Shown here one piece after another: positions 1-34,844 of a DNA stretch of 64,000 nt (position 1 is the first letter of the stretch; every line of letters starts with the position of its first letter). This stretch comes from a virus: IMG/VR virus record IMGVR_UViG_3300021962_000027; one strand, given 5' to 3'. The notes under the pieces were generated by a model, which saw only the letters and a program-made list of their open reading frames with translations, was not told the DNA's origin and did not search any database. The translations under genes and the position numbers were made by a program.

Positions 1-183
1 CATGCTAATATACTTGGTGGTATGGCTACTTTGGTTAAATTTAATTTCATGGATACCCCAACTTTAAATAAATTCTATAGTGATATAATCATGGATAAAG
101 AAACCATGACCAAAATTAAAAAAGCTATTGGTAAGAATATTATACCAAAATTAAATAGCGGTAGTTTAGAATTTTCATTTTAA
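1..183 (+). CDS. 3' end of a hypothetical protein, truncated by the window start
   Basis: Frame +1 is open from base 1 (HANILGGMATLVKFNF...SLEFSF) to TAA at 181-183, 3 nt before the next ATG. Confidence 0.7.
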   Translation, partial: HANILGGMATLVKFNFMDTPTLNKFYSDIIMDKETMTKIKKAIGKNIIPKLNSGSLEFSF

Positions 184-186
184 TAA

Positions 187-2889
187 ATGGCTCAAGGGGA
201 TATAGCAGCAAAATTAGATAAAATGCTTAAGGAATTAGATTCTTTAAACAATGGTAATACTGTGTCCCAAAAACTTAGAGAAAATGCGATTCAACAAATT
301 ATAGAATCACACGCAAAATCTATTGACGCTAAAAAAGAAGCTTACAAATATGATCTTAGACAAGATACGATATCATCGTATATTAAAAAAGTTTATAAAA
401 GAAATAAGGATGTAATTAATGAAAGGATTAAGTTAGAAAAGGAACAAGAGAGGATAACTGAGTTAATAGAAAAATATAAGGAAGAAGAGATTGAAGCCGC
501 ACAAAATGGTAAGACAGAATTAAGTAAATATATCCTTAAAAGAAGAACCCAGTTAGAAACCGAAAAGATTATCAACGAAGCGATGGAAGGTGCTTCAGAC
601 ACAGCAGAAGCTGCCGCTAAAACAGGTAACCCGTATTTAGCCGCTATTATTGTAGTTGGTGGAGCTGTATTCACCGCAGTTAAAACATTAGCCACAGCCG
701 CATTTAGTTTGTTTAAAATAGTTGGTGGTTTTGTTACGGATATGTTTGGATCTGATTTGGGTATCGGAGCTGTTTACGAAACTTTTCTTCGAATGCAAAA
801 AATCACTGGTGATTTTTCAGCGGATGCTGGGTTAATCGCTTCTGAATCCGAAAACTTCCTGGGTAATATGCCTAGAATAATGAATGAAGTTCTAGATGTT
901 GGTGGTACCATTGAACAAATTGGTGAGGTGATGGATAAATTAACTAATGTAACTGGTAAAAATAGAATGTTTACTGGTAAACAATTTAAAAACATTATTG
1001 AGTTAGGTCTTGGTACTGGTTTAGGTGTAGAAGAGGGTTCAGAACTCATAGGAAACTTTGATAACTTAGGGTATTCATTAGATCAAACACTTGAATTAAC
1101 CGACTATGCCAGAAATAAGGCAATGAGAGTATCCCAAAACCAAACAGGGGTTCTTAAAAAAGTAAATGAATTAGTTATCTCATTAACTGGTTTCGGTATA
1201 TCTAGGGGTTTAAAGGGTCTTACTGATTTGGTGGTTAAAACCCAAAAATTAAGAATTGATGTTGTTAAAAGCGTTGATTCATTTAAAGATGCTTTTACTG
1301 ATCCAGAGACTGCTGTTGAAGTAGCAGCGACCGCCAAATTACTTGGTGGTAAATTTGCATCTTATTTCGGTGACCCTTTTACATTAATGGGTAAGAGTGT
1401 ACTTGAACCAGAGGAATTAACAGCTGATTTAATTGAAGCGCTAAAAGGTAAAGCTTTTAAAGGTAGAAACGGTTTTCAAATGTCACCAGCTGACCGTCAA
1501 ATAATTAAAGAGTTTGCTGAATCGATTAATCAAGATGCTGACGAATTAATGAATGGTGCTATTGAACAGGCTAAATTTACCGATAAAATAGACGCTTTAG
1601 ATAAAAAAGGTTTTTCAGCGACAATGAATAGTGAACAAAAGGATTTGATCACAAATTTAATGACATTAAATGAGGATGGTAGTTATAGTGTTAGATTATC
1701 AAACGGTGTTATTAAAAGACTTGAAGAAATACCAAGTATAAATGTAATAAATCAAACTTTGTTACAAAACAGAAGAAATGATGAATCAGCTTTGTTAAGA
1801 AAAACACTAGCCGAAAGAATTGGTATAGCCATTGATAGATTTAATATCGGTTTCTCACAAGTATTTGTTGTATTAAATAGGTATTTCACACAAAACGATA
1901 CGATGAATAATTTAGATAGTACCGTTGCTAGTGTTAGTAATGGGATGATTAATTGGTTAAACCAAAATATGTCCAATACTGGTTTATGGGGTGTATTCAT
2001 TAGAAAAGGTCTTAAAGCTGCTAATGAAATGATCGATAAAGTATTAGGTATATGGTTGAATCCAGATACAATCTTTACACAAAAATTCGGTGAAACGCTT
2101 AATTTTATATTTAAGGGTCTTAATGATATATTAGTACCTTACATACAATATTACGGTGGTAGAATAGTTGAATTACTGGGTAATGTGTTACCAGGTATTG
2201 GTGAAAAATTCCAAAAAATAGGGTTAGAGGTACAGAAAAACGCTTTAAATAACGCAGGTGAAAATTCTATTTTAAGTAAAAACAAAAAGAACTCATTAAC
2301 ACAAAGAATTAATACGTGGAATGAAAATAACGGGGGTGTGGATCTTAGTTCGCCAGCGATAAAAACTGGTGCTTATTTAACATCAAAATCTGCCGCAAAA
2401 ATACTAGGAAAAAGTATAGTTAAAAAAATACCTGGTATCGGGTTAGTACTTGGCGTTTTTGATGCAATTGGCCAAGTTGTTGAGGGTGATTGGGATCAAG
2501 CTGGGATAGCACTTGCATCTGGGGCTTTAACCACAATACCTGGTGTTGGTACAGCGGCATCAGTGGCTTTAGACCTAGGTAACGCATATATTGATAACCA
2601 AAGAGGTGATAACCATATATCAGTTCAAGACGCTGTTATTAGACCAGACGGTAGTTATTATGATGGTAATAAGGGTGATACAATCTCATATTTAAAATCT
2701 TTAATAGAAGGTAATATGAGTACAAACGCTAGTAAAAAAACATCAGTTAATTTAGTGTTAAAAGGTAAAATAACTAACATAAGTAGAAACACAAGATTAA
2801 CTGATAAAGAGCTTGATGCATCAATTTCTGAATCATCAAAAATGATATTAAAACAAGTAATAACTAATTTACAAACATCTGCTGTATAA
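187..2889 (+). CDS. Tail tape measure-like protein, paralog 1 (900 aa)
   Basis: Helical A/K/E/L-rich protein with an N-terminal coiled coil and hydrophobic Gly/Ala segments (YLAAIIVVGGAVF; KKIPGIGLVLG...IPGVGTAASVALD). It lies upstream of tube-initiator, LysM and hub genes. Confidence 0.75.
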   Translation: MAQGDIAAKLDKMLKELDSLNNGNTVSQKLRENAIQQIIESHAKSIDAKKEAYKYDLRQDTISSYIKKVYKRNKDVINERIKLEKEQERITELIEKYKEEEIEAAQNGKTELSKYILKRRTQLETEKIINEAMEGASDTAEAAAKTGNPYLAAIIVVGGAVFTAVKTLATAAFSLFKIVGGFVTDMFGSDLGIGAVYETFLRMQKITGDFSADAGLIASESENFLGNMPRIMNEVLDVGGTIEQIGEVMDKLTNVTGKNRMFTGKQFKNIIELGLGTGLGVEEGSELIGNFDNLGYSLDQTLELTDYARNKAMRVSQNQTGVLKKVNELVISLTGFGISRGLKGLTDLVVKTQKLRIDVVKSVDSFKDAFTDPETAVEVAATAKLLGGKFASYFGDPFTLMGKSVLEPEELTADLIEALKGKAFKGRNGFQMSPADRQIIKEFAESINQDADELMNGAIEQAKFTDKIDALDKKGFSATMNSEQKDLITNLMTLNEDGSYSVRLSNGVIKRLEEIPSINVINQTLLQNRRNDESALLRKTLAERIGIAIDRFNIGFSQVFVVLNRYFTQNDTMNNLDSTVASVSNGMINWLNQNMSNTGLWGVFIRKGLKAANEMIDKVLGIWLNPDTIFTQKFGETLNFIFKGLNDILVPYIQYYGGRIVELLGNVLPGIGEKFQKIGLEVQKNALNNAGENSILSKNKKNSLTQRINTWNENNGGVDLSSPAIKTGAYLTSKSAAKILGKSIVKKIPGIGLVLGVFDAIGQVVEGDWDQAGIALASGALTTIPGVGTAASVALDLGNAYIDNQRGDNHISVQDAVIRPDGSYYDGNKGDTISYLKSLIEGNMSTNASKKTSVNLVLKGKITNISRNTRLTDKELDASISESSKMILKQVITNLQTSAV

Positions 2890-2904
2890 AAACAGTTTGT
2901 TTTG

Positions 2905-2912
2905 TATTTATA
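2905..2912 (+). promoter_or_regulatory. Putative phage late promoter TATTTATA
   Basis: The same motif recurs in the spacers upstream of structural genes. Confidence 0.55.
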
Positions 2913-2941
2913 GTTAACTAATATATAGTAAATTTAAATAA

Positions 2942-5632
2942 ATGGCACAAGGAGATTTTTTCAGTAATTTAAAAAATGCGCAGCAAAGTTTGAGCGATGC
3001 TAGGGCTAACGGTTTGATCACCGCACAGCAGGAAGAAGATCATATGATGAAAATGATGTCATATTATGAAGCCATAAACGCAAAAAAAGCAGCTGGTAGG
3101 GAATGGGATTTAAAAAACCAAACAATACTACAAAATATATCTAGGTTTGGTAAACAAATGGTTGAAGATGCTAATAACTTAAAAGATGCTAAAAAGAATC
3201 TTAAGAAGACAACTGAAGAAATTAAAAAACTTGATGAAACCGCCAATAAATTAGAGCAGAGGGGTAATAAACTCGCTGCCGATATGATTAAAAAGAAAAA
3301 GGCTCAACTAGAACTTGAAAAAGAAATTGCTGAGGTAAACGTAGAAACAGCTAAAACCGCTAGTGGTAAAATGGGTAGTGCGATGGCTGGTATATCTGGT
3401 GTTGGTAAAACAATCGGTACACAATTTAGTGGTATAGGGAGTATATTTAGTGGTATTTTAAGTACGGCTTGGAATTTAGGTAAAGCTTTATTTGATATAA
3501 TTTTCCCTATTGAGAAAGCTTGGAAAATGTTTCTTGAAATGCAAAAAGTTGTTGGTGGGGTTGCCGCTGATATAGGTTTAACATATTCAGAATACAGAAA
3601 TTTAATGAATCAAATGCCAACCCTTTACAATGAAATAATAGGGTATGGTGGTAAGATTGAGGATATTGGTAAAATTATTAAGGGTTTTAGTGATGAAACT
3701 GGTAAAAATCGTTTATTTAGTAAAGAAGAAATAACAGATATAGTTAAACTTGGTTACAGCACTGGTTTAGGTGTTGAAGGTGTGACTAACATGGTTGCTG
3801 AATTTGACAATCTTGGTATATCACTAGGAACAACAATGAAAACCGCTGAAAAGGGGAGACAAGTTGCCGCCAAATTTAATATTAATCAAACAAAACTATT
3901 AAAAACGACAACTGATGTTGTTAAAAATTTAACTGGTACCGCTTTCGGTAGAAGTGTAGAGGATTTAACAAAATTAGCAGCTAAAGCTGAATCACTTAGA
4001 TTTAATTTAGCGGAATCAATTAGTTCTTTTAAAGATGCGTTCTTTAGCCCAGAAAAAGCCGTTGAAGCGGCAGCTAAAATACAAGTACTTGGTGGTGAAA
4101 TGGCGCAACAATTTGGTGACCCATTCTCATTAATGTACGATTCAATGAATAACGCTGACGGTATGGCCGAGAAATTAATCGACAGTGCTAAGAATCTTGC
4201 GGTTAAAAACAAAAACGGTGAATTTATTATTCCACCAGCACAAAGACAAATATTAAAAGAACAAGCTGAAGCGCTTAATCAAAATTATGAAACGATACAA
4301 AATGCTGCCATAGAACAAGCTAAAACAGCTGACAAACTTAACGCTTTAGCTAAATCTGGTAAAAACTTAATGGGTTTTGATGAAGATCAAAAACAACAAT
4401 TAAGTAATTTAATGACTCTTAACAAAGACGGTCAATATGAGATTAAAATGCCTAACGGTGTTAGTGAGTTGGTTAGTAATATCACAGGTGAGGATCAGTT
4501 GAAAAACATATTATCACAAAGAAAAGCTAGTGAAGATGCTGCACAGTCTAGATTAACGTTACAAGAAAGATTAAACATAGTTTTAGATAGGTTCGCCATT
4601 GGTTTAACACCGTTATTCACAAATTTAGCTAGATTTTTAGAGGATGAAGGTACTTTAAAAAAGATTGAGGATTTGGGTAAGGGTATTGCTGACGGTTTAA
4701 TACCTTTCATTAATGATTTATTTTCACCAGGTGGTTTTCTTGAAACTGGTATTAAAGATTTCTTATCTAAATTTAATACATTCATGGATCACATTAGAGA
4801 TATAATGAATGGTGAGGGTACCTTTTTTGGTAAAATAGGTAAAATATTTGGTGAAATAGCTAGTTTCGTAATGAAAGGTATTTTACCATATGTTGAATTT
4901 ACTTTTGGTCACATTTTAAAAACATTAGGTGACGCTTTAGATATAGATTTAATTAAAAATGCTGGTGAACAAATGATATCTGGTTCATTTGTTACTGATG
5001 GTAAAAGAAATGAGGCTTTAATAGCCATGGCTGGTGGTGAAAAAGCTGTTCAACAACAAATGGGTAGAGGTAATAGAGCTAGAGCCGAAAATAATGATAC
5101 TGGTGGTTTTACATACGGTGGTTATGCGGCAACGGGTGCCGCAGCTGGTGCAGCTATTGGTAGTATTATCCCTGGAGTTGGAACCGCTATTGGTGCTTTA
5201 GTTGGTGGCGCTGGGGGATTAATCACCGCTGGTTTACAAGATATCTTTGAAACTGACGATAACCCAAAACAGCAACATTATCAGTTACCCCCAGTTGAAA
5301 ATGTTAATGACGCTGTATTATATTCTGATGGTAGGGTTTTTAAAGGTGGTAAGGGTGATGCTGTTGCTTTCTTAGATGAAATGGCCTTTGGTCAAGCGTA
5401 TAAATCTGCAATGACTGGTGGTGGAACAAACACAACAGTTACAGTGAATGTCTCTGGTGTTATTGAACATGATTCACCTAGTGGTAAAAGATCGATAACA
5501 GCTAAACAATTATATGAATCAGATCCGCAAATGTTTGGGGAATTTATAAAAACTACCATGGCTAAGAATGATTATGGTAGTGGTAACTACATTGTTGATT
5601 TCGGTGTGGCGCCAATTAGTGATATAGGATAA
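2942..5632 (+). CDS. Tail tape measure-like protein, paralog 2 (896 aa)
   Basis: Colinear similarity to 187..2889 (MAQGD start; GLGVE..FDNLG.SL; SFKDAF..PE.AVE.AA...LGG..A..FGDPF.LM; AIEQAK..DK; NLMTLN.DG.Y; DRF.IG). It also has a glycine zipper GAAAGAAIGSIIPGVGTAIGALVGG. Confidence 0.75.
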   Translation: MAQGDFFSNLKNAQQSLSDARANGLITAQQEEDHMMKMMSYYEAINAKKAAGREWDLKNQTILQNISRFGKQMVEDANNLKDAKKNLKKTTEEIKKLDETANKLEQRGNKLAADMIKKKKAQLELEKEIAEVNVETAKTASGKMGSAMAGISGVGKTIGTQFSGIGSIFSGILSTAWNLGKALFDIIFPIEKAWKMFLEMQKVVGGVAADIGLTYSEYRNLMNQMPTLYNEIIGYGGKIEDIGKIIKGFSDETGKNRLFSKEEITDIVKLGYSTGLGVEGVTNMVAEFDNLGISLGTTMKTAEKGRQVAAKFNINQTKLLKTTTDVVKNLTGTAFGRSVEDLTKLAAKAESLRFNLAESISSFKDAFFSPEKAVEAAAKIQVLGGEMAQQFGDPFSLMYDSMNNADGMAEKLIDSAKNLAVKNKNGEFIIPPAQRQILKEQAEALNQNYETIQNAAIEQAKTADKLNALAKSGKNLMGFDEDQKQQLSNLMTLNKDGQYEIKMPNGVSELVSNITGEDQLKNILSQRKASEDAAQSRLTLQERLNIVLDRFAIGLTPLFTNLARFLEDEGTLKKIEDLGKGIADGLIPFINDLFSPGGFLETGIKDFLSKFNTFMDHIRDIMNGEGTFFGKIGKIFGEIASFVMKGILPYVEFTFGHILKTLGDALDIDLIKNAGEQMISGSFVTDGKRNEALIAMAGGEKAVQQQMGRGNRARAENNDTGGFTYGGYAATGAAAGAAIGSIIPGVGTAIGALVGGAGGLITAGLQDIFETDDNPKQQHYQLPPVENVNDAVLYSDGRVFKGGKGDAVAFLDEMAFGQAYKSAMTGGGTNTTVTVNVSGVIEHDSPSGKRSITAKQLYESDPQMFGEFIKTTMAKNDYGSGNYIVDFGVAPISDIG

Positions 5633-5651
5633 AAAAAAACAATTTAAATAA

Positions 5652-5659
5652 TATTTATA
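5652..5659 (+). promoter_or_regulatory. Putative late promoter TATTTATA, 4 nt before the ATG
   Basis: ATATTTATAAG in a 31-nt spacer. Confidence 0.55.
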
Positions 5660-5663
5660 AGAT

Positions 5664-8600
5664 ATGAGTCTTAATAGTATTTCAGGACAATTTAGAAACA
5701 CAGTTCTAAATTTAAACTTACAATCTCCACCTGATATTGTAACGGGTTTAGTTAATTTAACTAACTCAGTTACTGTTAGCGCCTATTTAGATTCTTTAGG
5801 TCAGGATGCTGTTGTAAATAATTTTTCGGTGCAAAATCCAGGTGATGTTGATACAGCTGGTAACCCCGCTAGATTAGCAAATCTTAACAGAACATTAAAT
5901 ACACCTACCGACATTACAACTGGTATAACTGATTTAACGGTAAACCAACAATATGTCGCTAGTTTTATTAGCGGTAGAGGATCCGTAACAACGATTAATG
6001 ATTATACTAACGTTAACCCAGGTGATGTATTAACAGAAGCGGTTAATCCAAGACTTTTAGATTTAAATAAAAACCTAAACACACCAACAGATATCACAGC
6101 TGGCGTCCAAGCTTTAACACCAAACGCTCAATTTGCTTCCCAATATTTATCTGGTAGGGGTTCATTTAGTGTTATTAACGATTTCAATGTTATAAACCCT
6201 GGTGATGTGTTAACAGATGCTGTTTCACCAAGGCTTTTAGATTTTAGTAGAAACTTAAATACACCAACAGATATCACGGCTGGTGTAAACGATCTAACAC
6301 CTAACGCAGCTTTAGCGGCTCAATATTTATCTGGTAGGGGTTCATTTAGTGTTATTAACGACTTTGTTGTTATTAACCCTGGTGATGTAATCAATGATGC
6401 GATTGCACCAAGAATACTAAACTTTGCTCAAACATTAAATACACCAACAGATATCACAGCTGGTGTTCAAGACCTAACCCCAAATTCAACATTGGCGGCA
6501 CAATACCTTTCTGGTAGAGGATCTTTCGCCCCAGTAAATACATCACCTAATATTAACCCTGGTGATGTTATTAATGATGCGGTAGCACCAAGAACATTAA
6601 ACTTTAATAGAACATTAAATACACCAACAGATATCACAGCTGGTTTAAATGATCTTAGTGGAGCGTATGCAGCTCAATATTTAGCTGGTAGAGGTTCTTT
6701 TAGTGTTATTAATGATTATATTAACATAAACCCTGGTAATGTTCAAACAGATGCGGTAGCACCAAGAACATTAAACTTTAATAGAACATTAAACACACCT
6801 ATTGATATCACCGCTGGTTTAAATGACCTTAGTGGGACATATGCGGCTCAATATTTAGCTGGTAGAGGATTAGATACAGTTATTAATGATTTTAATAATA
6901 TAAATCCTGGTAATGTAGTTGTTCAATCATTAGCACCAAGAACATTAAATTTAAATAGAAACTTAAATACACCAATCGATATAACGGCAGGTTTAACCAA
7001 TCTTAGTGGTTCATTTGCATCTCAATATTTAGCTGGTAGAGGATTAGATACTATTATTAATAACTTCCAGGTTTTAAACCCAGGGGATGTTATGACAGAA
7101 GGTTTAGCACCAAGAACGTTAAACTTATCAATGACATTAAATACACCTATTGATATCACATCTGGTATTAGTACGTTAACAGCAAACGCATCTTTAGCAG
7201 CTCAATATTTAGCTGGTAGAGGTACTAACGCAGCTATTAATACATCACCAAACATTAACCCAGGCGATGTTGTTACAATAGCTAACCCACAAAGAATTAG
7301 TTTATTTAATAGGAATATTATTAAAGACCCATTAAATGACGCAACAGATCAATTCACAATTGCAAATCCAGGTACTGTGGCTATTGGAGCCGATACCGTT
7401 ATTAATGATTTCACAGTTTTAAATCAATCTGAATTAGCACCATTTACACAGCAATGGATTAACTCTAATATCAGAAATAGATACCAAGCTGAATTAACTG
7501 AATTAGTTGATAAAACTGGGGATATTTTCCTAAATACTGACCCTAATACACCTCAAAACCCTTATTTAACCGAGGATAAGTTAAATAATGCCGATCCAAC
7601 ACAACTAGTGATGGGTGACTTCTTAAATTTACCAACAGCATCAACACCTTTAAGCGCTTTGCTTGGTGCGGATTTAAATGTGGCTAATTTACTAACAGAA
7701 CCAGGTGTTAAAAATGATACATTATTAGCACAAATTGGTGCTTTAGAATTGAAGTTCCATTTGGAAGCTAGAATTGCTGCTAAATTGGCACAGGAAGCCC
7801 TAGGATTAACTACTTTGGATGATATGGTAACTAACCCGCTTAAGTTAGCTGAAGCGATTAAAAACCCTAGTTCTATCATTGAGAGAGGTAATGCCGATAT
7901 TACAACATTTAAAGGTGGTTTGGGTAAGGTTGCCAGTTTTATATCCGATGTTAGTGGATTGGGTGGTTTAACATCAGCATTTTTTACCGATGATTCTATC
8001 GTTTTAAGACCAACTTGTTTTTCTGAATCAGAATATGGTACTTACGATATTGAGAAAAAAATAGAAGATAGGGATATTAATAGGATTGAGGAGACAGGTA
8101 GAGGACAAAGATTCTCACTTTTCCTTAATTTAGGTATTAATAAATATACACCAGATTTTGTTGTAAAATTAGGAAGGTCTGACAAAAAAATGTTAGAAAG
8201 CTCCGCTAAAACCCAAACTGGTGTTGAAGATGTAATGTTTAAAACATACATAAGTGGCGGTATTAACGGTACGTTTTATCTATTACAAGATATAAACGGA
8301 TTACAAGTTAAAGCAAATACTGAATTAACAAGAGCTATAACAAAGGGGCCAGCAAATCAAGAAAATTATTATTCAGAACCAGGTGTTGAAACTGTTTCAA
8401 AATATAGTTCAGTACAAACATCATTTGTGTGGAGAGGTTCAACAATGGAAACTTTCTTAGACCCAGTTAATAAACAAACATTGACAGACGATTGGGATGG
8501 TAGGATCAAGGATAATGATACGTTATCAAAAACTAAGACATTCCGTGACTGTTCTATTTTAGATGTTACACAAACTTTATTAGAAGCTGGTGTTGAAAAT

Positions 8601-11600
8601 AGGGCTGCAAGAGCTATTGACCAAACAAAAACAAAATTTACTGATGGTTATAACTTCTCACCAAAAGGTAGTGGTGTGATCACACCATATAGAACTGAAA
8701 GGTTAAGTAAAGACGGTAAAGATGTTGTTGGTTATAAATATTTTGTTCCAGGTCTTGATGCCGCTGGTAACAGAGACCAAAAAAGAATGTATGATGAGGT
8801 TGAGTTATGTAGAACATGGACAAAAGCTAAACCCTTCACAAAAATTACTGATCTTATTAGATGGAAAGAATTACACAGAAAAGAAAGAAACTCAGTATTA
8901 GATAGATATGGTAACTTAAACATCCACCCCTCAGCGCTTAACGTTAATGAAGGTTATGGTAGGTTAGGTGACGGTCTTGGTGATGCTGTTGTTGAAGCTT
9001 TTGGCGAAAAAAGAGCTAGAAAATACATGTTCTCTATTGAGAATCTAGCTTGGAGAGAAGCTAGATTATTCGCAGATTTACCACCTTGTGAGAAGGGTAG
9101 TAATGGTGGTAGAATTATGTGGTTCCCACCATATAATATTAGATTTACTGATGATACAACAACAAACTGGACAGCACACCAATTCCTAGGTAGACCAGAG
9201 CCAATATACACTTACCAAAATACCGAAAGATCTGGTACTTTGAGTTGGGATATAGTTGTTGATCACCCAACAATCTTGAATTTATTAGTTTCTAAAGAGT
9301 TTGCATCATTAACAGATGGTGAAGTCGATGAATTATTAGCTGCTTTCTGGGCTGGTTGTTTAGAATACGATGTTTTTGAATTAGCTAGAATATGGGGCGT
9401 GTTTAGTGAGTCTGATATTGAATACTTCCAAAAAGTAATAGAAGATTTGGACATAAGACTCCCTAATGAAGTGATCAGGAAAAAAATTAAAAGTTCTGGT
9501 GTTAATAATGATAAAAAAGTTGAAATAGAAACTGATGATAAAGCAGCGCCTGCGATACCACAATTTAACTTATTTTTCGAAAACGATATACCATTACCAT
9601 CAAATAGATATAAAGTAAAAACATTTACTGTCGATCCGTATGATAAATATTTTCAAATATATACTGATTTAGCAAATGGTGTAAACATAGATAAAAACTC
9701 TGAATATCAAGAAGAAGCTGTTTGGGGTAATACTTACGGTTCTGGTTTAGCTGATAAAAATTGGATTCGTTATGATAAAACCATTGGTAATAAAATGCCA
9801 GAGGGTAGTAGATACTTTTTTGAAAAAGATAGAGAAAAGTTTCCAGCAAAAACATTTGGTTATGAACAACAATTCAATAGCCTAAAAGATAGTGATTATT
9901 CGGCAAAAAATTATGCATTAACAAAAGATTTTAATTTAAATATTGATATGGTTGCGCATGCATCACCATCCGCACCTGGTAATTCATTAGATAATATAAA
10001 AAAATATAATGATAAATTAGCTGCCAGACGTTTTGTTTCCGTAACAAAATGGTTTATACCAAATGTCTTAAGTAATGATACGATTAAATGTTATAATGTT
10101 AATGATGGTTTAGAAATAACACCAGAAACTATAAATAGTATTTTTAGTTCTGGTTTAGAGGAAACTAATACGATTACAATCCTAAGGGGTGATATAAATG
10201 AACCAACTAAAAGACAAAGAATAATTTTAACTGTTTCAGCTGCGGATGGTTTAACAACTGACGATGTGTTCCCAACGGACCCAACTTCTGACTACGCTAC
10301 TTTATTTGGTATGCCTAAAATATTTAATATTAATGGTGAGGATATACAATATTATGAAATAGCTTATGGTGATAAAATTTATTATATGGTTAAAACATAT
10401 GATGAATACGATAAAGTTGAAGGTCAATTTAAACCAAATGGTACGTTAATAAAAAATAGTCTAATTGGTACAGCTATTGCTATTAGAACAGATAATGGCA
10501 AAGCCACACAAATATACAGAAGACAAGCTGATGTTATTTGCGGTAACTTATCGTCAAACGCATCTTATGCTAGGAGAGTTGAGGTAAATTCTCTTTTAGC
10601 GCCTAAAGAAATACCTATTGAAAGAGTTACACCACCAGATCAAGACCCACCAGCTGAGATTGAGAAAAAATTTGTTACAACAAATGTAACTAAAAGGGAA
10701 ATAGCGCAAAGGATATTAAATAAATTATTAACGGAATGTGATTATTTTGAATATCTCTCAAAAGAGACGCCTATACTTTATGATAGTTTAAAAAGTAAAT
10801 TAAAGTATTTCACCCCAGCTTTCCACTCAATGACACCTGAAGGGTTAAACACTAGATTAACGTTCCTACAACAATGTATGAGACCTGGTGATACTATAAC
10901 TAAAAACCAGGGTCAAGGTAATTGTGATGCTAAAAACACCTCATTTGGTAAACCACCAGTTTGTGTTTTACGAATAGGTGACTTTTACCACACAAAAATT
11001 ATTATTAATAGTTTGAATATAAGTTATGATCCTTTGGTTTGGGATTTAAACCCAGAAGGTATTGGTGTACAACCAATGTTAGCTAAAATTAATTTATCGT
11101 TCAAATACATAGGTGGCCAAGGTTTAAGGAGATATGTTGACCAATTACAAAACGCTTTATCATTTAACTATTACGCAAACACCGATGTCTATGACGAAAG
11201 AACATTTGCTAATACAGATAGAAGAGAAAGGGATTTAATTAACCTTGAACAAGATTTCTTTGCTCAAAACTCATTGGATTTAATACCTATTGTGGCTCAA
11301 GCTAAATTAATAACACCTTCAACTGAATATTTACCAGTTCCTGCTGGTACAATTGGTATAATTAGTCAAAGGTTATTACCAAAATTAGCTGGTGGCACAT
11401 ATTTTAATAGTTTAGTTTCCGCAACACCATTTGACCCAGTAACAGATTTCCCAGCTGAAGCGTGTGTTGTTTACCAAGGCCAATATTATGTTAGAAAGGT
11501 AGCGAAATACCCAGAATCTGGACCAACATTACCAACAGACACAAACACTTGGACAGCTGTTGATCAATCAAACTTTGGTGAATTCGCATTCAGGGAAGAA

Positions 11601-14165
11601 TACGGTAGATATTATATCAACCAATTCGATGTTAAGTACGATGGTATTTTTGGTGAGTTATATAAAACATTCGGTGAGTATGTTTATGCATTAACAGGTG
11701 AAAATGAGACTGGTATTACGTATGTAAATGAAAAATATAGAACATTATCTGATATCCTTAGAAAGAAAAATTATGCAAAACCTATCGCAACTAGTGGTGA
11801 TACAATATCATCAATAATATCTAGTATTAGCGGGAATACAATACCTGTAGGTGGTTTTAGTGGTTTAACTTTTTATGAGGTTTTTACTAATATTGCTAGT
11901 GATAAAAGATATCTTGAATTAGGTGACATTTTTAAAAAACACCCATTCTTCTTAGGTAAAAACAACAATAAACCAGAGCAGTTCGAAGCATTAAAACTTA
12001 ATTTACACCCACAAGAATATATGTTTAAAGTTGGTGATGGACTTGGTATACCATATAAATTTGAGGCTTTAACAAATGCACCCAATAATGGTAGAAGCAC
12101 CAAGTATTTTCAAGGTAGCTTCACAAACGGTTACACCAATTATTTTGATGGCGTATCTGAAACAGGTGGTATCTTCTTTAAAGAGAGCTCAACATCACAA
12201 AAAATATATGAATCGATAATGGATAATTTCGCCTTAGAGTTTAAAACTAAGATAAGATTAAACTTATTACCGATTTGGGATGCTAAATACGACACTAACC
12301 TAAACACTTTTGACGGTTTCAACACTAAATTAGATGATGTTCATAGAATTATGTTTAGAACTTATTTAACTAACTTATTTGATTCTTATTATAGCGGACT
12401 TAAATCAAATAATGAGGAGACTACAAATACCATAAACGATAAAATCGCTAAAATGAGTGTCATACTTTCTGGTTTATCACTACCATTATATGGTTATGAC
12501 GCTAAATACACAGAAGATGGTAAGGCTCAATTATATGAAATAGTACCAAATGCTAAAAAACTCACAACAAAGGTAACAGATGCTAATATGTTTGGATATA
12601 ACCCTTACGATCAATATAAGAAATTAAATATTAGTGGTGGGGAGATAATTAATTTTTCAGATATTAACACCATATTCCAAAATACTAGTAGTAGTGGGTG
12701 GGACGGTAGTATATCACCAACATTAATGGATTATATAGGTTTGGGTAATGGTTTATACTTCTTTAAACAATTAACTAATGAGTGTATTACTGGTACAACA
12801 AATAACCCATTCCCAACTGGTGAAACAACAAATGTTATGTACGAATACGTTAGGAATATGGAATTCATACAACAAGTATTTGGTTATGAGAACATAAGTG
12901 ATTTACCAAACCAGTATAATTTTAAAAATTGTTTACCGAAAGCTGTTGCGTTCTCAAATAGCGCAATTGTGATGGCTAATCTACACAACTATTATTTTGA
13001 AACACCGTTTTCATTTAACCCTAACGAATTTGGTGTGTCACCATCAGCTAGATTATTGGAAACAACAGCTGATAACTTAACAACCAGATTATCGGATGGA
13101 AGTATTGGTAATACCATTAATAATTCATTTAGTACTAACGATTATGAAATGAAATATACGTGGGAAAAATTAAATTACGAGATGTTAGAATTCAGTAATA
13201 GGACTCTTGATTTAATGTTATCCGATGATTTAGAGACTAAATTAAATGATGTTGATTTTACGTTCACACCATCTTTATCATTTGACACGCAATTAGAAAA
13301 CCTAACAGGTACTACAATTGATGGAAGTGCAACTGGTAATACAATATCTAAATCATTATTTTATTATGGTGATAACAAAAAACCAAACCAATTTTTAACC
13401 GATGTTAATTATTATTTATTTAATGAAGATAACCCTAACATAACTGGAACTAATTTAGCTAGCATTTTAGGTAATCTAAATAATTTGTTAAAATATAATT
13501 TCACGATAAATGAACACTTTATTTCATCTTTACCAGATAATAATAAAACTGTTTTATCGGGTACAACTGTTAATGGTGGCACAACTGATTTAATACAATT
13601 AAGTGCTATGCATGAACTTATTTTTATGGAGTTTATTGTTAATTTAAACAATGATAAGAACATTCATATAGAAGCGTTAAAAACACAATTCCTTGAATCA
13701 ATATCCATTCCAGCTAATATAAAAGACAAACCTAAGAAGGTTGAGAAATATATCGCACAAAAAACAAAAGAAATTGAAGGTGTTATAAAAGACACGTTTA
13801 ATTTAATATCTAAATTTGTTATTGAATTTGATTCGGTTATAGGTGATTTATATTTTTATAACATGGATATAAAAAATCAAACAATTAAGAAAATAAATAA
13901 AAATGTTTTTGATAGCGCTGATAATGAGTACTTGATGTCTTCTGATGAGATGAAAAATAAACTAATAAAGGGTGGCCCAGAGGATTATACCTTAACTATG
14001 AGAGAAACTAGTAAATTAGATAACACCATCGTTAGAAACTTAAAACTATTTACAAAATACAAGAGTGACCCTATTATTAATATAAGCTCTGTACTAGAGG
14101 CTGAGACCGAACCAGTTGCAACAAAGACTGAATTAGCGAAGCAATGGCCAGAATTATATGATTAA
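5664..14165 (+). CDS. Giant baseplate / tail-tube initiator-like protein (2833 aa) with N-terminal repeats, an inserted OmpA-like domain and a CBM5/12-like module
   Basis: Tube-initiator-type motifs W..HQFLGRPEPIYTYQNTERSGTLSW and PPVCVLRIGDFY...IINSLNISYD..WD......PMLAKINLSFKYIG. OmpA-like AHAS...YNDKLAARR..SV and ARRVEV. It lies between the tape measure and LysM genes. Confidence 0.65.
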   Translation: MSLNSISGQFRNTVLNLNLQSPPDIVTGLVNLTNSVTVSAYLDSLGQDAVVNNFSVQNPGDVDTAGNPARLANLNRTLNTPTDITTGITDLTVNQQYVASFISGRGSVTTINDYTNVNPGDVLTEAVNPRLLDLNKNLNTPTDITAGVQALTPNAQFASQYLSGRGSFSVINDFNVINPGDVLTDAVSPRLLDFSRNLNTPTDITAGVNDLTPNAALAAQYLSGRGSFSVINDFVVINPGDVINDAIAPRILNFAQTLNTPTDITAGVQDLTPNSTLAAQYLSGRGSFAPVNTSPNINPGDVINDAVAPRTLNFNRTLNTPTDITAGLNDLSGAYAAQYLAGRGSFSVINDYININPGNVQTDAVAPRTLNFNRTLNTPIDITAGLNDLSGTYAAQYLAGRGLDTVINDFNNINPGNVVVQSLAPRTLNLNRNLNTPIDITAGLTNLSGSFASQYLAGRGLDTIINNFQVLNPGDVMTEGLAPRTLNLSMTLNTPIDITSGISTLTANASLAAQYLAGRGTNAAINTSPNINPGDVVTIANPQRISLFNRNIIKDPLNDATDQFTIANPGTVAIGADTVINDFTVLNQSELAPFTQQWINSNIRNRYQAELTELVDKTGDIFLNTDPNTPQNPYLTEDKLNNADPTQLVMGDFLNLPTASTPLSALLGADLNVANLLTEPGVKNDTLLAQIGALELKFHLEARIAAKLAQEALGLTTLDDMVTNPLKLAEAIKNPSSIIERGNADITTFKGGLGKVASFISDVSGLGGLTSAFFTDDSIVLRPTCFSESEYGTYDIEKKIEDRDINRIEETGRGQRFSLFLNLGINKYTPDFVVKLGRSDKKMLESSAKTQTGVEDVMFKTYISGGINGTFYLLQDINGLQVKANTELTRAITKGPANQENYYSEPGVETVSKYSSVQTSFVWRGSTMETFLDPVNKQTLTDDWDGRIKDNDTLSKTKTFRDCSILDVTQTLLEAGVENRAARAIDQTKTKFTDGYNFSPKGSGVITPYRTERLSKDGKDVVGYKYFVPGLDAAGNRDQKRMYDEVELCRTWTKAKPFTKITDLIRWKELHRKERNSVLDRYGNLNIHPSALNVNEGYGRLGDGLGDAVVEAFGEKRARKYMFSIENLAWREARLFADLPPCEKGSNGGRIMWFPPYNIRFTDDTTTNWTAHQFLGRPEPIYTYQNTERSGTLSWDIVVDHPTILNLLVSKEFASLTDGEVDELLAAFWAGCLEYDVFELARIWGVFSESDIEYFQKVIEDLDIRLPNEVIRKKIKSSGVNNDKKVEIETDDKAAPAIPQFNLFFENDIPLPSNRYKVKTFTVDPYDKYFQIYTDLANGVNIDKNSEYQEEAVWGNTYGSGLADKNWIRYDKTIGNKMPEGSRYFFEKDREKFPAKTFGYEQQFNSLKDSDYSAKNYALTKDFNLNIDMVAHASPSAPGNSLDNIKKYNDKLAARRFVSVTKWFIPNVLSNDTIKCYNVNDGLEITPETINSIFSSGLEETNTITILRGDINEPTKRQRIILTVSAADGLTTDDVFPTDPTSDYATLFGMPKIFNINGEDIQYYEIAYGDKIYYMVKTYDEYDKVEGQFKPNGTLIKNSLIGTAIAIRTDNGKATQIYRRQADVICGNLSSNASYARRVEVNSLLAPKEIPIERVTPPDQDPPAEIEKKFVTTNVTKREIAQRILNKLLTECDYFEYLSKETPILYDSLKSKLKYFTPAFHSMTPEGLNTRLTFLQQCMRPGDTITKNQGQGNCDAKNTSFGKPPVCVLRIGDFYHTKIIINSLNISYDPLVWDLNPEGIGVQPMLAKINLSFKYIGGQGLRRYVDQLQNALSFNYYANTDVYDERTFANTDRRERDLINLEQDFFAQNSLDLIPIVAQAKLITPSTEYLPVPAGTIGIISQRLLPKLAGGTYFNSLVSATPFDPVTDFPAEACVVYQGQYYVRKVAKYPESGPTLPTDTNTWTAVDQSNFGEFAFREEYGRYYINQFDVKYDGIFGELYKTFGEYVYALTGENETGITYVNEKYRTLSDILRKKNYAKPIATSGDTISSIISSISGNTIPVGGFSGLTFYEVFTNIASDKRYLELGDIFKKHPFFLGKNNNKPEQFEALKLNLHPQEYMFKVGDGLGIPYKFEALTNAPNNGRSTKYFQGSFTNGYTNYFDGVSETGGIFFKESSTSQKIYESIMDNFALEFKTKIRLNLLPIWDAKYDTNLNTFDGFNTKLDDVHRIMFRTYLTNLFDSYYSGLKSNNEETTNTINDKIAKMSVILSGLSLPLYGYDAKYTEDGKAQLYEIVPNAKKLTTKVTDANMFGYNPYDQYKKLNISGGEIINFSDINTIFQNTSSSGWDGSISPTLMDYIGLGNGLYFFKQLTNECITGTTNNPFPTGETTNVMYEYVRNMEFIQQVFGYENISDLPNQYNFKNCLPKAVAFSNSAIVMANLHNYYFETPFSFNPNEFGVSPSARLLETTADNLTTRLSDGSIGNTINNSFSTNDYEMKYTWEKLNYEMLEFSNRTLDLMLSDDLETKLNDVDFTFTPSLSFDTQLENLTGTTIDGSATGNTISKSLFYYGDNKKPNQFLTDVNYYLFNEDNPNITGTNLASILGNLNNLLKYNFTINEHFISSLPDNNKTVLSGTTVNGGTTDLIQLSAMHELIFMEFIVNLNNDKNIHIEALKTQFLESISIPANIKDKPKKVEKYIAQKTKEIEGVIKDTFNLISKFVIEFDSVIGDLYFYNMDIKNQTIKKINKNVFDSADNEYLMSSDEMKNKLIKGGPEDYTLTMRETSKLDNTIVRNLKLFTKYKSDPIINISSVLEAETEPVATKTELAKQWPELYD
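5718..7316 (+). repeat. Coding tandem repeat, 9 units of 174-180 nt (58-60 aa)
   Basis: Units start at 5718, 5895, 6075, 6255, 6435, 6615, 6789, 6963 and 7137. Consensus LNTPxDITAGxxxLxxxxxAAQYLxGRGxxxVINDFxxINPGDVxxxAxAPRxLNxNRx. Confidence 0.95.
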
Positions 14166-14181: not shown

Positions 14182-14505
14182 ATGGCTTTAAATTATTTTA
14201 ATCGATACAAAAAGTTGGATAGTGACGGAAAACATGTTTCCCCGCCTTTTATTAAATTAACCGAAAAACAAACGGATAAATTTACGACTTACGTTGTTAA
14301 TAAAAGTAGGTTGGATAAATTCAGTCAGCAGTTTTATGGAGCACCTTACTATGGTTGGTTAATATTAATGGCTAACCCTGAATTAGGTTCAAGTGAATGG
14401 GAATTCCCAGATAACTCAACAATAAGAATACCATTCCCTTTACAAGATAGTTTAAGAGAATATGACACAAAACTAAAAAATAGGTTGGATTATTATGGCG
14501 GTTAA
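14182..14505 (+). CDS. LysM-like baseplate protein (P2 gpX / T4 gp53-like)
   Basis: RLDKFSQQFYGAPYYGWLILMANP...IRIP pattern, in the typical position before the hub gene. Confidence 0.75.
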   Translation: MALNYFNRYKKLDSDGKHVSPPFIKLTEKQTDKFTTYVVNKSRLDKFSQQFYGAPYYGWLILMANPELGSSEWEFPDNSTIRIPFPLQDSLREYDTKLKNRLDYYGG

Positions 14506-17411: not shown

Positions 17412-20400
17412 ATGGGATTAGCTTTAGCAAATTTTTTAAAAGAAAGATATCTTAATAGTACCGACTCGGACTTAGGTGCCGTGATGTCAACTGCATATGA
17501 CGAATACAATAATAACATATTGTTGTCAACCGCAGAAAAATATCACGATGCGTTTAAAACCGAAACTTTATTTAAAAATGTACATGATCTACCTGTTAGA
17601 TACGGTACCCAATCAACCGCATACCAATCACCATCAACACCCGTTAACCACGCAATATTTGCGCAAAATATAGTAAATGAATCTAAAACTGGTAAATTAT
17701 TTAAAACAGCACAGCTGTTTATTTCTAGTTTAGCAACAGAGTCTAATAATGGGGTGGTATCACCAGCACAATTAGGTAAGATATTTAAAAGAACCCAAGG
17801 ATTAATTGAGGTACCCACCCACTTGGTGTTATACATTGGTGGATTATATGATTTTTATTATTATGGAACTCCAGATAATAATATTGATTTAAAAACAATT
17901 AACGGTGTTTCAAATAAAGATGGTAGTGATTTATTATCCAACCCTTTATTATTGAACAAACATTATGGTTCATACGCTTTCGATAACAATAACGCTGGTT
18001 TAAAAGCCGCAACGTTACCATTCGTAAAACCTCTAACCCCAAGATTCATTGATGATTTAATGTCATTTGATTATGAATCATATAGAGACCAGAAATTACC
18101 TAAAAATTATCGTGATACATATTATGATTATGAATTTAAACAGGATATCTCTTTAAGTAATAACATATCATCACATATACCATTTTCTGGTTACGGTGTT
18201 TTAAATAATTATTTAAACTCAATGTCATACCTATACTTCAATGAAGGTCTTGATGGTCAAACAAATGAAAATAGTAGTTTAAATGACGATGGTTTACCTT
18301 ACCATATAATTGGTAATTTTAGGGGTAAATTAAAAACGTTTAAAACATATAATGATCAGAATATAAATTTCCTAGGATCATATAATAGTTACGGACCTAA
18401 AGTTAAATTTAATATATCAACAGCAGACTCTGATTTAAACACTATAACTAGCGCCATAACATTTGACAATGATTTTTTATACACGGATAAAAATAATAAA
18501 GAAAAAATAGAATTCTTTTTACTTCTATCCAAGATAAAATGTAATTTTCTTGGTGGTTATATGGACACGGTTGATGTTTATAACATAGTTAGAAAACTGT
18601 GTGCTATTAATAATTTAAAAGCTAAACAGGATGATATTGAAATACCTGATTTTATCACTTTATTAATACACAGTTTAATACCACCAGATGGTAATGAACC
18701 AGACACAGATTCCAATAGAGTTAATAGGAACCTAACAATCTTAGATAAATATAATGTTGATTCAAGATCGTTCATCGGTTATATAGATATTAAAACTAAG
18801 GAGTATAATGAGTTATACACAATCATATTAATGATTAACCAGTTAACTGGTAACGACCTATATGATTACGCATCAAGACTATTGGTATCAATGTGGTCAA
18901 GAGAGTTTAACCAAAAAGAGAATAATAAACTTAAAGCATTAGACGGAAGAGGTTCATTTGTTGTTTACCCAAGTTGTGGTGGTGATATTAATGTTAATAA
19001 TTTATTTACACAAAACGATTTTGATTACGGTTTGGGTAATAATAAAGCGTCTATAAACCCTAAGTATAAGTACCAAAAAACTAATGTTGTACATACGGTA
19101 TTTGAAACACAAGGTGATGCCTATTTATCAAATTTAGTACATAATGATCCAGAATTTTTGGTAATCGATTCTAAGGTATCAAATGATATAACAAATTACT
19201 GGAACAGGACCTATTTATATTCGCAGATAAACCCTGGTTTAGCTGAATTTGTTTCCCTTAATAACTCACAAAACTATTCTGATAGAATAATACCTAAAAA
19301 TGTTACGGCAAATGATACCGCTTTAATGGGTATGTATTTACCCGTATATTTTAGACCAGAAAACGCCCCATCAAATGGCACATTCATCAATTATTTTGAT
19401 AGGTATGATGATGTTTATATCATTGCAAATACAACGGATCCAGAGGGTGTTAAGAGACTTAAATTCGATAACAAATCTTTAATATATAATACCAGTAGAT
19501 TATTTTGGTTTGATTCGCCAAACACTAGTGGCGTAATATACCCAGAGACTATTAAATTCGCCCCAAAAAATGCAACACAAAAACCAGATTTAATATCCGT
19601 TGATTATTACGAGTATAAACATTTCCATTTAAAAAACGGTAGTGTTTATGATTATAAAAACGGTGAGTTGTTTTATGACATGTCTAATACCGATGAAGAG
19701 GTTGTTAGATCTTATAACGATTTTAAAGCTGGGTCCACATTATATTCGACTTTTGAAAACTTAGTTAGTAATGCTGACAGTATCACTAATTATTATTCGG
19801 ATAACAAACAAATACAAGATGCGGATTCTGCAAAAATTTTATTAGATATTTTCGACATTGATAAATTAGAAGACTTCAGAACACTATTCAAAAAATTTGC
19901 TGATGGTACCCAAGAAAATTATTTTAATAAAACATTTAATACGTTTGATTTTAAATCATTGTTAAAACACACAACGATGTTTGGGTATAGCAACTTACCA
20001 AATAGTGTTGAATTATACGGTAGATCTTTCGGTAAAGATGAGTTATTGGCGCTGATTTGTGGTTACTCTGGTAATTTCATAGAATTCGCCTCTATAACTG
20101 GTTTAGCTAAGGTTATTAACACCGCATTAACTTTAGGTCAAGAAGATAAGGCTAGGTTCGTAATAGATGAATTTTTAAACGCAAAAATAACCGTAAATAA
20201 TTACTCAACAGGTGGACCATTAACAATAGAGAGTTCCGATTTAAATAACCCAAATGGTTTAAGATTAAATTCGTTTATTTTTAACCCAATTATAGCATAT
20301 TCAACAAACACAAGAACTTATGAAAATATCGTGGCATCGCTTGGTGATGTTTTGTTATTCAGAACAATTTTATTCGGTGATCAAAATATTTCAGGGTATA

Positions 20401-23400
20401 GTGATCTAGATCCTGGTATAGATGAATTGGTTAAAAAATACGTATTGGTTAAAGGTATGACAAAAAATATTGATCCTAATTTGGGTGAAGATTTTGTTAT
20501 AACGGAATTGACTAGAGTTTTTTTTAGGAAATTAAATATACAATTAAATGAAGGTAATTTAAAATTATTAATAACATATTTAAGATCTTTCATAGCTGAA
20601 ACTTTATTTAAATCGATAGCGTTAAATCTATATAACGGTAAAACAAGATTATTTGATTTAACTAAAGATAATTACGATTCGGCTTTAATTCACCCCTCAA
20701 AAGAAGGTGCTAAAAACCAAATTTATGACCATCAGAAAAAAAAATATATCGTTATTTCTGAAATTAAAAACGGTGTTTTAATACCAAAAGATTCTATATC
20801 ATATGTTAATGAAAAATTTGAAGATTTCCAGTCCGATATAGTGTTTAACGATTGGGTTAAAAAATTTAATAAAGATTTTGTTGAAAAAGCATTAACCACT
20901 TTAAATGGTTCCTTAGGGTCCTTACATGAAAAGTTATTAGAAAAATTAACCACAAATTATAATGATACTGTTGATGGGGATGGTTATGAATATGAAGATA
21001 TTAAAACCGATGAAATTGATATTAGAACAGGTACATACTATAGGATTAAAACACTTTATGATAAAAATGTTTCATATACTAATATTAATGCCACCGATGA
21101 TCGATTAATAAAGAAAAGTAGTCATGAACTAGGTTCTGCCGATGTTAATGCGATTTTAAATAGCCCGTTATTTTTTAACTTTAATGTACAACAACAAGAT
21201 ATTTGTGATGATAATGGTTTATTAACACCTAGTAGTGATAAATTAAAAGATTTAGTCGATTACACCCAAGTCTTGGATAGAGGTAATAACCCTTTTGGTA
21301 CAAAAGTTTTTGTTGATATAGTTTCATTTAAACAAACATTAACAGATGATTTATATAAGGAAGGTGAGATAAATAAAACCACATCAAAATCTATGTGGAC
21401 AATTTTATCTAAGTTAGCTAGTGATCATGAATTCTTATTGATGCCATTAACATCTTATATAAACTTAAGTGGTTCTGTTACCGAAAAAGATAGTCCATAT
21501 GATTTAGCCCATGACATGTTCGGTGTTTTTAACACACTTGAAATGTGGGAATCAAACCCCTCTTTCATATTCCAATTAGGGTCATTAACATCATCGGTTG
21601 GTAACGGTGGTAGTAAAAAGAATTCAGCTAAAAGTAATTTTGATTTAAGTAACTCTTTTTGTTTAGATATTGATCAAAATAGTCTGGATATAGATGGCAA
21701 TGGTAAAATCCTTAATGAAGACGTACCTTCAGATGTTAGAAATTCTAATGTCTCATCTTTTATCGTGGATTTTGCGAACCCTAATCAAAACATGTTTGAG
21801 AGTATACAGTTATCAACTGATGAGTTCGCTAATACGGAAGAAAGTATCAACGCACAAGTTGCCATAGCTGGTGGTCAACCAGTTTTATCAAGCGGTAAGT
21901 TATTTAGTGCGATGGAAAACAGATCATATTCTTGTACCGTTAATAGTCTAGGTAACGCTACAATACAACCATTATCATATTTTTACTTAAGAAATGTTCC
22001 TTTATTTTATGGTACCTATTGGATAACAAATGTTAGCCACAAAATATCTGCAAATAATACCATGACGACAACGTTTAAGGGTGTTAGACAACCGATAGCT
22101 AGAAAACCGACACCAAATGTTGCGGTTATTAGAGCATTACTTAAAAAAGCTAAAGAATTATCTGGCCAACAAGGTTATTTAGATAGGGATGATGCAACAC
22201 CAATACCAACGTCTGGTGAAATATATACCAATAGATCTTTCACAGGTGTTAGTGGTACAACTAGTGAAACCAAATATGGTTTATTGTATCAAAGAGCTAC
22301 TGATGAAGGGGTGAATAAATATGTTACATATAACGGTTTATGGGTTATCGCCTCATACTTAAAATTAATGACTGGTGGTGATGAAACTGATACGGTATTA
22401 ATTAAAACATTAATATCATATTTACATAATAACGCATCGGAATTGGCCGTATCGTGGGATATAGATTATACAGCACCATATTTTGTAGATATTGTTGCAT
22501 ATGATTTATATAATAAACTTGGGTATGAAACTAACGAACTATCTTTAAGTGAATTATTGGATAATTACCCAACAACAGCTGGTGATATGTATCAAACAAC
22601 CTTATATAAATTACTCGAATTCCAACAAAAACCGAATGATTTATTAGCTTATTTAACTTTAACAGCTGAAGAAAAATATAACCCAAAAACAACCTTAATC
22701 ACAAATAGTAAAGGAACGGCTATTACTAATGATGAGACATTACCTAAGATAACATTTCCTGGTGATTTTGGACAAGATAATCTTAGTGCGATAACAAGAG
22801 TCAATTATTGGGTTAGCGATACAACCAAAAGTAACCTTAAAACATTTAATGGATTATCAACTTATGAATTGGTTAGTTATTTTGACACAACACCAGCCAC
22901 ACCAACTGTTAGTATAGTACAACAAACATTACAAGAAGCGGCAATTCAAAACGCTATCCAATTGGATTTGGCAAACCCTGCCGAGTCAACTGGTGTTGTA
23001 GCACCTACGTTATACCCAGCAACAAACGCTAATTTAAATACACAGTTTAAATTTTCATTACAAGCACCAGCACAACAAACAGTACAACAACAGCTCTTTG
23101 CGGGGTTACCACAGTTTAATAATAACACACAAACTACAAGCGGTACAACACCTAGAGAACTTGGTTCACAAAAAGATGGTTCGTTTGATTTCTCTAAAGC
23201 CTTTTCAAAAACTTTTACAATAGAAGGTTATGATGAAGATTTGATTGCATATGTTATGGGTGGATATGGTAAGAGTAAAAAATATGCATTCTTTAAACTA
23301 TGTAATGATAGCGAAAAATTTGAGTATGATACCATAAAAATAAACAAACATGCTCATATTGATTTAAAAATACTGGGTCAAGATAATGGTAACGCTACTG

Positions 23401-34424: not shown

Positions 34425-34841
34425 ATGGCAATAAAGAAACAAACATTTGGTATGGATTTCCCATTCGTTAATTCGAATAGTGGTGATTATGTTGGATTAA
34501 CCACAATACCCGAATCAGAGGTTAAAGCTATGCTAATCCATTTATTATTAACAAAAAAGGGATCCAGATATTTTTTGCCAGATTTTGGTACAAATTTATA
34601 TCAATATATATTTGAACCGTTAGATGATATAACCTTAGGTAAAATAGAGGCTGAGATTCAAGATGCGGTTGAAAAATACATTCCAAATTTAAAATTAAAC
34701 GATGTTGTCATTACCAGAGTTGGTGACGAGGAGCGATATAAAAATGACACTGAAAGAGAACATCAGATTAGGATAAACCTAGATTATACAATAACAACAA
34801 AAACGTTCCAGACAAGCGATAAATTGGCTATAACACTATAA
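34425..34841 (+). CDS. Baseplate wedge protein, gp25-like
   Basis: LLLTKKGSR...PDFGT.L..YIFEP...I..A.EKYIP signature. Confidence 0.9.
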   Translation: MAIKKQTFGMDFPFVNSNSGDYVGLTTIPESEVKAMLIHLLLTKKGSRYFLPDFGTNLYQYIFEPLDDITLGKIEAEIQDAVEKYIPNLKLNDVVITRVGDEERYKNDTEREHQIRINLDYTITTKTFQTSDKLAITL

Positions 34842-34844
34842 AAA

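Follow-up and report, generated by a model that had tools for sequence, protein, structure and literature searches.

Two diverged tape-measure paralogs in tandem, possibly sharing one tail tube, in a lineage of uncultured T4-related myophages

Why would a tailed phage keep two tape measures? Tape-measure proteins (TMPs) are textbook single-gene rulers whose length sets tail length, at about 0.15 nm per residue. We addressed this question in the viral record IMGVR_UViG_3300021962_000027 of IMG/VR, of which a stretch of 64,000 nucleotides (nt), hereafter the window, was analysed. The window begins inside a tail module, and its own upstream gene order is inferred from the loci of relatives. Close to its left end lie two consecutive open reading frames (ORFs), here called A and B, of 900 and 896 amino acids (aa). 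Our best reading, held with moderate confidence, is that A and B are two TMPs derived from one tandem duplication and that both would be packed side by side in one tail lumen. The pair and the gene before it are arranged as follows.

1-186, plus strand: 3' end of the preceding tail-module ORF, homologous to the ~245-aa ORF before A in relatives; the start of A follows directly
187-2889, plus strand: TMP paralog A (P0001), 900 aa, intact; the faster-evolving copy
2942-5632, plus strand: TMP paralog B (P0002), 896 aa, intact; the slower-evolving copy

An earlier sequence-only reading of this locus described two intact tandem genes of these positions and lengths that both begin with MAQGD, and the ORF list and the sequences agree with it. 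It also held that the copies are colinear and strongly diverged. Pairwise alignment by BLASTP bears this out: A and B share 35% identity in a colinear match over aa 1-678 (E 1e-114), far above chance, and they align again, over a short stretch, around a C-proximal motif, D.V...G....G.KGD. Judged by this alignment, A and B are true paralogs.

We used more than 20 related loci from IMG/VR and metagenomes as context. Genomes with two copies always carry A before B, separated by 50-62 nt. In single-copy genomes this slot is filled by a lone gene encoding 807-1015 aa, and a deeper syntenic relative (L063) has one copy of 651 aa. The survey of single versus double copies that the sequence-only reading had proposed therefore returned a two-copy clade, A then B, and single-copy outgroups. 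In the phylogenetic tree, the A, B and single-copy clades each receive a Shimodaira-Hasegawa-like approximate likelihood-ratio test (SH-aLRT) value of 100, and the branching inside A mirrors that inside B. Adding more distant homologs as outgroup joins A and B as sister clades (SH-aLRT 98) and leaves the single-copy lineages outside. Sister clades, mirrored trees and single-copy outgroups together point to one tandem duplication whose products have been co-inherited since. By these criteria the pair arose once, in the ancestor of a subclade of uncultured, large, T4-related myophages of low guanine-plus-cytosine content (contigs of at least 160-320 kb).

Both copies have been maintained through considerable divergence. 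Ortholog identity to the window copies goes down to ~43% for A and ~54% for B. For A, the ratio of nonsynonymous to synonymous substitution rates (dN/dS, NG86) lies at 0.15-0.29, compared with 0.08-0.27 for B and 0.19-0.27 for the single copy, values that indicate purifying selection on A and B alike. Relaxed selection on one copy, which the sequence-only reading had named in advance as a refutation of its idea of a shared tube, is rejected by this range of 0.08-0.29. We also observed a third, chimeric copy between A and B in one relative (L008:12713-14677; IMGVR_UViG_3300002144_000620). Over residues 1-559 this copy is 100% identical to the B of the genome, and its residues 560-654 are identical to the C-terminal end of the A there; the whole is an exact in-frame tandem repeat of ~2.0 kb [A C-end + spacer + B 1-559]. 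The repeat may be a very recent duplication, similar in kind to the one that could have produced the pair originally, or else an assembly artefact.

Gene order identifies the slot that the pair fills. In the related loci, the order is invariant: a 173-aa ORF, a 255-aa ORF, sheath (~1020 aa), tube (162 aa), a PF12322 hub protein of the T4-baseplate (gp26-like) type, a ~245-aa ORF, the TMP slot with either A then B or one homolog, and a giant ORF of 2000-2800 aa. Sheath similarity singles out Microcystis phage Mel-JY01 as the closest annotated isolate. It has the same gene order, and its slot protein of 1348 aa matches several TMP PHROGs; comparison of our family with this 1348-aa protein by hhalign was not significant. 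A and B thus sit where a T4-related tail module encodes its tape measure, in the position expected of TMPs, after the sheath and tube and the hub-assembly genes and ahead of the baseplate and spike genes.

Structure prediction and remote homology searches place A and B in the same class. The AlphaFold2 (AF2) model of A is nearly all helix by DSSP, with a mean predicted local distance difference test (pLDDT) score of 62 and 70-85 in its core. Together with the hydropathy profile and a weak glycine-zipper Pfam match, this describes a long, mainly helical protein with hydrophobic and glycine-zipper segments, as expected of a TMP. No Pfam match of either protein is significant, and neither has an enzyme domain. 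A Foldseek search of the model against BFVD gave 79 matches at E<=1e-3, the top ones named tail tape measure (E 2.6e-15 and 9.4e-15). A family profile collected 3865 representatives at E<=1e-3; of 40 distant relatives, six matched phrog_167, a TMP family, at best with 6.8e-17. Searched directly against PHROGs, B gave weak tape-measure matches (phrog_4200, 3.7e-5; phrog_23574, 2.4e-5), and A matched solely families that share its glycine-zipper stretch. Among the ESM-Atlas neighbours of B, 22 of the 30 named ones are PF10145 clusters; PF10145 is carried by neighbours of the pair alone, reached via fold and language-model features. Searches of PDB chains with the sequences of A, B and the family profile returned coiled-coil noise alone, Foldseek found nothing in PDB at E<=1e-3, and VIA-align wide gave generic long-helix matches alone (Z<=9). 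The distant family member P0197 had no match in 50,697 phage records, and single proteins of distant family members retrieved nothing in IMG/VR. A scan of GTDB genomes found no relative, and hence neither a prophage nor a hint of the host. The slot, the BFVD fold matches, the PHROG matches of distant relatives and the ESM-Atlas neighbours sustain the original call of both proteins as tape measures: we assign the two to the functional class of TMPs, and neither can be shown to be a member of a curated Pfam TMP family. From a TMP of ~900 aa, we predict a tail of ~125-135 nm.

We then compared which parts of the single-copy protein each paralog retains. The relevant segments are listed below, A before B.

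628-735, plus strand: A hydrophobic region II, aa 148-183; transmembrane (TM)-like at aa 147-165, strongly hydrophobic like the single-copy relatives
772-1866, plus strand: A conserved helical core, aa 196-560; AF2 pLDDT 70-85
2422-2592, plus strand: A ancestral glycine-zipper module KKIPGIGL...EGDW...PGVGTA, aa 746-802; common to single-copy relatives, absent from every B
2626-2712, plus strand: A C-proximal motif D.V...G....G.KGD...(F/Y), aa 814-842; common to B
3374-3511, plus strand: B region II, aa 145-190; Gly/Ser-rich, hydropathy below that of A
3518-4618, plus strand: B conserved helical core, aa ~193-559
5117-5236, plus strand: B Gly/Ala-rich hydrophobic stretch, aa 726-765; TM-like at aa 736-755
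5306-5392, plus strand: B C-proximal motif NDAVLYSDG...KGDAVAFLDE, aa 789-817; common to A
5453-5629, plus strand: B ancestral C-terminal end SGVIEH...GSGNY...PI, aa 838-896; common to single-copy relatives

The MAQGD N-terminus and the KGD motif are retained in all three clades (A, B and single-copy), and two other ancestral parts are distributed between the paralogs. The glycine-zipper module (IPxxG...EGDW...PGVGTA) is present in 7/10 single copies, in 4/13 A proteins, including the one in the window, and in 0/11 B proteins. The GxGNY...PI end occurs in 7/10 single copies and 10/11 B proteins, as against 0/13 A proteins; the C-terminal end of A is shorter and unrelated to the ancestral one. 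Hydropathy is divided in a similar manner. In the N-proximal part, the maximum Kyte-Doolittle score over 19 aa reaches 2.03 ± 0.16 for A and 1.86 for the single copy, against 1.53 for B; in the C-proximal part, it is 0.80 for A, 1.25 for the single copy and 1.32 for B. The TM-like segments do differ between the copies as originally noted (aa 147-165 in A, aa 736-755 in B), and membrane-type segments are likewise partitioned, N-proximal in A and C-proximal in B. These distributions indicate a partial, complementary loss of ancestral modules after duplication, of which the simplest reading is that A and B jointly supply the parts of the former single protein.

The glycine-zipper module also has a wider distribution. 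By tblastn of A against the 50,697 phage records, this stretch (window 2422-2592) was the sole part with relatives in cultured phages, and no cultured relative of A was found. The module matches occur in cyanomyophages (S-PM2, S-CAM4), P-SSP7, Acidovorax phage ACP17 and Xanthomonas jumbo phages, some in proteins annotated as endolysin or 'late control D'. The module resembles a mobile membrane-anchor module common to ejected proteins.

Expression signals offer a further distinction between the copies. The upstream ORF leads into A with a gap of 3 nt, free of any spacer or motif, and in a relative (L001) the equivalent ORF at 9260-9997 likewise ends 3 nt before A. The spacers that follow A and B each contain a short motif.

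2890-2941, plus strand: spacer between A and B, 52 nt, with TATTTATA(G) at 2905-2912; candidate late-promoter motif
5633-5663, plus strand: spacer between B and the giant ORF, with a second TATTTATA at 5652-5659

That B has its own late motif had been read from the window alone, and the claim extends to relatives, where TATTTATA lies in the A-B spacer of 11/11 two-copy loci. Within the window, 5/9 plus-strand copies fall in the 1423 intergenic nt (2.2% of the window; binomial 6e-7). These five, at 2905, 5652, 24442, 34409 and 51669, sit in short spacers preceding structural genes, and the genes that they precede include B, the giant ORF, a gp25-like gene and the ORF at 51689. Read on the opposite strand, TATTTATA corresponds to the T4 late consensus TATAAATA. 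On the basis of this placement, TATTTATA is a candidate late-promoter motif, its role being inferred.

How might two such proteins work together? The copy number and arrangement of TMPs in the tube are debated, with three or six chains proposed. We suggest that a single tail tube would take up both proteins, lying side by side in its lumen, for example as three chains of A and three of B. The duplication would then fix a non-equivalence of TMP chains genetically. B, bearing the ancestral C-terminal end, would take the cork position proximal to the hub and spike; A, without that end but with a strongly hydrophobic N-proximal segment and, here, the glycine-zipper module, would fill the non-equivalent positions and, after ejection, supply part of the membrane-inserting portion of the DNA conduit. 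The TATTTATA motif of B would let the phage set the A:B ratio. A structural parallel to such an arrangement comes from the Pakpunavirus P7-1, in which six copies of a ~786-aa TMP were inferred in a 110-nm lumen and three C-termini alone form a cork on the spike (PMC13338283). By analogy, a 3+3 hetero-oligomer in one tube is plausible. In its fullest form the proposal is more tentative, and we put it forward as a conjecture: a genetically encoded hetero-oligomeric tape measure (for example 3 A + 3 B), in which the duplication would have removed a symmetry mismatch that myophages with one TMP accommodate by two conformations of a single protein. B would be the spike-proximal cork, and the three remaining chains, along with a membrane-inserting segment of the conduit that is distinct, would come from A.

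Several observations weigh against side-by-side packing of two tape measures, among them the lengths of the proteins. The sequence-only reading had used length conservation as its argument that both copies span the same tube. Across relatives, total lengths run from 851 to 952 aa for A (857-920 in the 11 two-copy loci) and from 884 to 948 aa for B. A minus B ranges from +36 to -65 aa in the 11 loci (r = -0.18), and including ten further pairs that shared contigs imply brings r to 0.18 (n=21), which is not significant. The distances from the N-terminus to the KGD motif also differ by up to 65 aa inside one genome, without clear covariation. We therefore rejected matched or covarying total length; the argument from length conservation falls with it, and the 4-aa match in the window is a local chance. 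The covariation survey had two outcomes: the total lengths do not clearly covary, which in part is the result named beforehand as contradicting the idea, and the N-terminal ~700 aa are constant. All of the length variation falls in the C-terminal quarter. The coiled coil, hydrophobic region, core and helical region that make up regions I-IV add up to 701 ± 4.5 aa for A and to 702 ± 5 aa for B, at most 11 aa apart within a genome, and the core measures 366 ± 1 aa in A, B and single-copy clades. The N-terminal ~700 aa are thus length-locked in both A and B. Single-copy relatives have the same locked length (regions I-IV, 699 ± 18 aa), which may be plain inherited architecture; the match shows A and B bound to the ancestral architecture and is not proof of mutual adjustment. 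In addition, the glycine-zipper module has been lost from A too in many two-copy lineages, so that the split of ancestral parts is only partial. The post-duplication stem is longer in A than in B (0.89 versus 0.54), as would be expected if A had gained a new role, and dN/dS is higher in A in 4/5 comparisons. Finally, Pfam TMP families gave no match at E<=1 for A or B, nor in 40 distant relatives, and the PF10145/TIGR01760 gathering score was not reached; hhalign of A1 and A2 with T4 gp29 gave a probability <6%, from a single-sequence template of low power.

The stem and the dN/dS values fit a reading in which B alone is the ruler and lumen protein, which is the main rival to joint packing and one that we consider possible, though less likely. 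A would then serve, for example, as an ejected membrane or periplasm protein carried elsewhere, or as a scaffold or chaperone absent from mature tails. The length of A is also the more variable (standard deviation about 24-26 aa by set, versus 14-17 for B), the ancestral C-terminal end is gone from A and kept in B and the single-copy relatives, and A translationally abuts the ~245-aa upstream gene while B has its own motif. Against this account, A retains a near-invariant MAQGD as well as the KGD motif, and in length its core and its regions I-IV match the ancestral ones exactly. Purifying selection on A is as strong as on the single-copy TMP, and none of the two-copy lineages has lost A.

Other arrangements of two tape measures fit less well. 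The hydrophobic and C-terminal parts differ between A and B and a separate promoter-like motif precedes B, as might be the case if each virion contained A or B and the phage made two particle types that differ in penetration or slightly in tail length. However, both genes belong to one co-oriented late cluster; no switch, invertible element or terminator was found in the 52-nt spacer between them, and the complementary module loss implies that neither copy alone holds the full ancestral set. We regard alternative tails as improbable. We know of no end-to-end arrangement of two tape measures. Here, A and B in series would give a tail ~2x that of single-copy relatives, but sheath, tube and flanking genes are of equal size in one-copy and two-copy phages, and the same MAQGD and KGD in both copies argue that neither end is specialised. 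Loss of the hub-side ancestral C-terminal end from A is what a distal-to-proximal relay might show, and we still consider rulers in series highly improbable. The chance is similarly slight that A and B are no tape measures and represent some other kind of long helical protein, of the virion or for ejection, that happens to be encoded in the tail module. No direct Pfam TMP match exists, PDB yields none by sequence or fold, and nearby giant ORFs (2833 aa, and 2334 aa with an M23 peptidase) are conceivable TMP candidates. Against this stand synteny with the TMP slot of Mel-JY01, BFVD fold matches to named TMPs (E 1e-15), the TMP PHROG matches of B and of distant relatives, and the PF10145 neighbours in the ESM Atlas.

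The neighbouring genes add detail to the tail region.

5664-14165, plus strand: giant ORF after the TMP slot, 2833 aa, without a family match; it always follows the slot

Past the giant ORF, a 107-aa ORF (window 14182-14505) matches phrog_7145 (1.2e-5), as does a 111-aa protein of Mel-JY01 in the equivalent position. The 107-aa ORF may be a spike-tip (PAAR/gp5.4-like) protein, in which case the giant ORF at 5664-14165 (2833 aa) becomes a hub or spike candidate. Further along, between the tail module and the replication genes, a 2334-aa ORF (window 17412-24416) has Peptidase_M23 at aa 2058-2151 (Pfam 2.4e-25) and is a giant wall-degrading virion protein. A block of replication and ribonucleotide-reductase genes comes between the TMP genes and the baseplate wedge genes of the gp25-like and gp6-like types (window 34425-36656), which follow ~29 kb downstream, so that the tail genes make up at least two clusters.

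Full-text literature searches found no description of paralogous TMP pairs, and the phage G tail paper describes one TMP. A clade that has preserved two diverged rulers, with ancestral parts that complement each other, over so long a divergence provides a natural experiment. Should both proteins be in the tail, the sets of chains can be told apart by sequence, and their stoichiometry, orientation and post-ejection roles could be traced by mass spectrometry and cryo-electron microscopy.

Comparison with known systems sets out what the pair shares with single tape measures and where it departs from them. The single-copy orthologs of sister lineages (for example L024, L036, L041 and L063) have the slot, flanking genes, MAQGD, core and KGD motif in common with A and B; in these relatives, however, one gene holds both the glycine-zipper module and the GxGNY..PI end that are divided between A and B. 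The TP901-1/PhageMin_Tail TMPs (PF10145, TIGR01760) likewise have a conserved helical core, with coiled coil and hydrophobic stretches on its flanks, and PF10145 is carried by the fold and language-model neighbours of the pair. Unlike them, A and B fall below every Pfam TMP threshold, and their 366-aa core forms a large family of its own (3865 representatives). Single-copy contractile-tail TMPs, including gp82 of Pakpunavirus P7-1 and, by position, T4 gp29, are also long, nearly all-helical and encoded between the tube and hub genes and the remaining baseplate genes. The contractile-tail TMPs share hydrophobic and glycine-zipper segments with A and B, and ~900 aa fits a tail of ~125-135 nm. 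In contrast to P7-1 gp82 and T4 gp29, there are two diverged genes here (35% identity) that retain different ancestral modules and lack detectable similarity to T4 gp29. With six copies inferred and three C-termini in the cork, the P7-1 lumen has a built-in 3+3 non-equivalence of one TMP, and the A/B pair may encode a comparable non-equivalence in two proteins.

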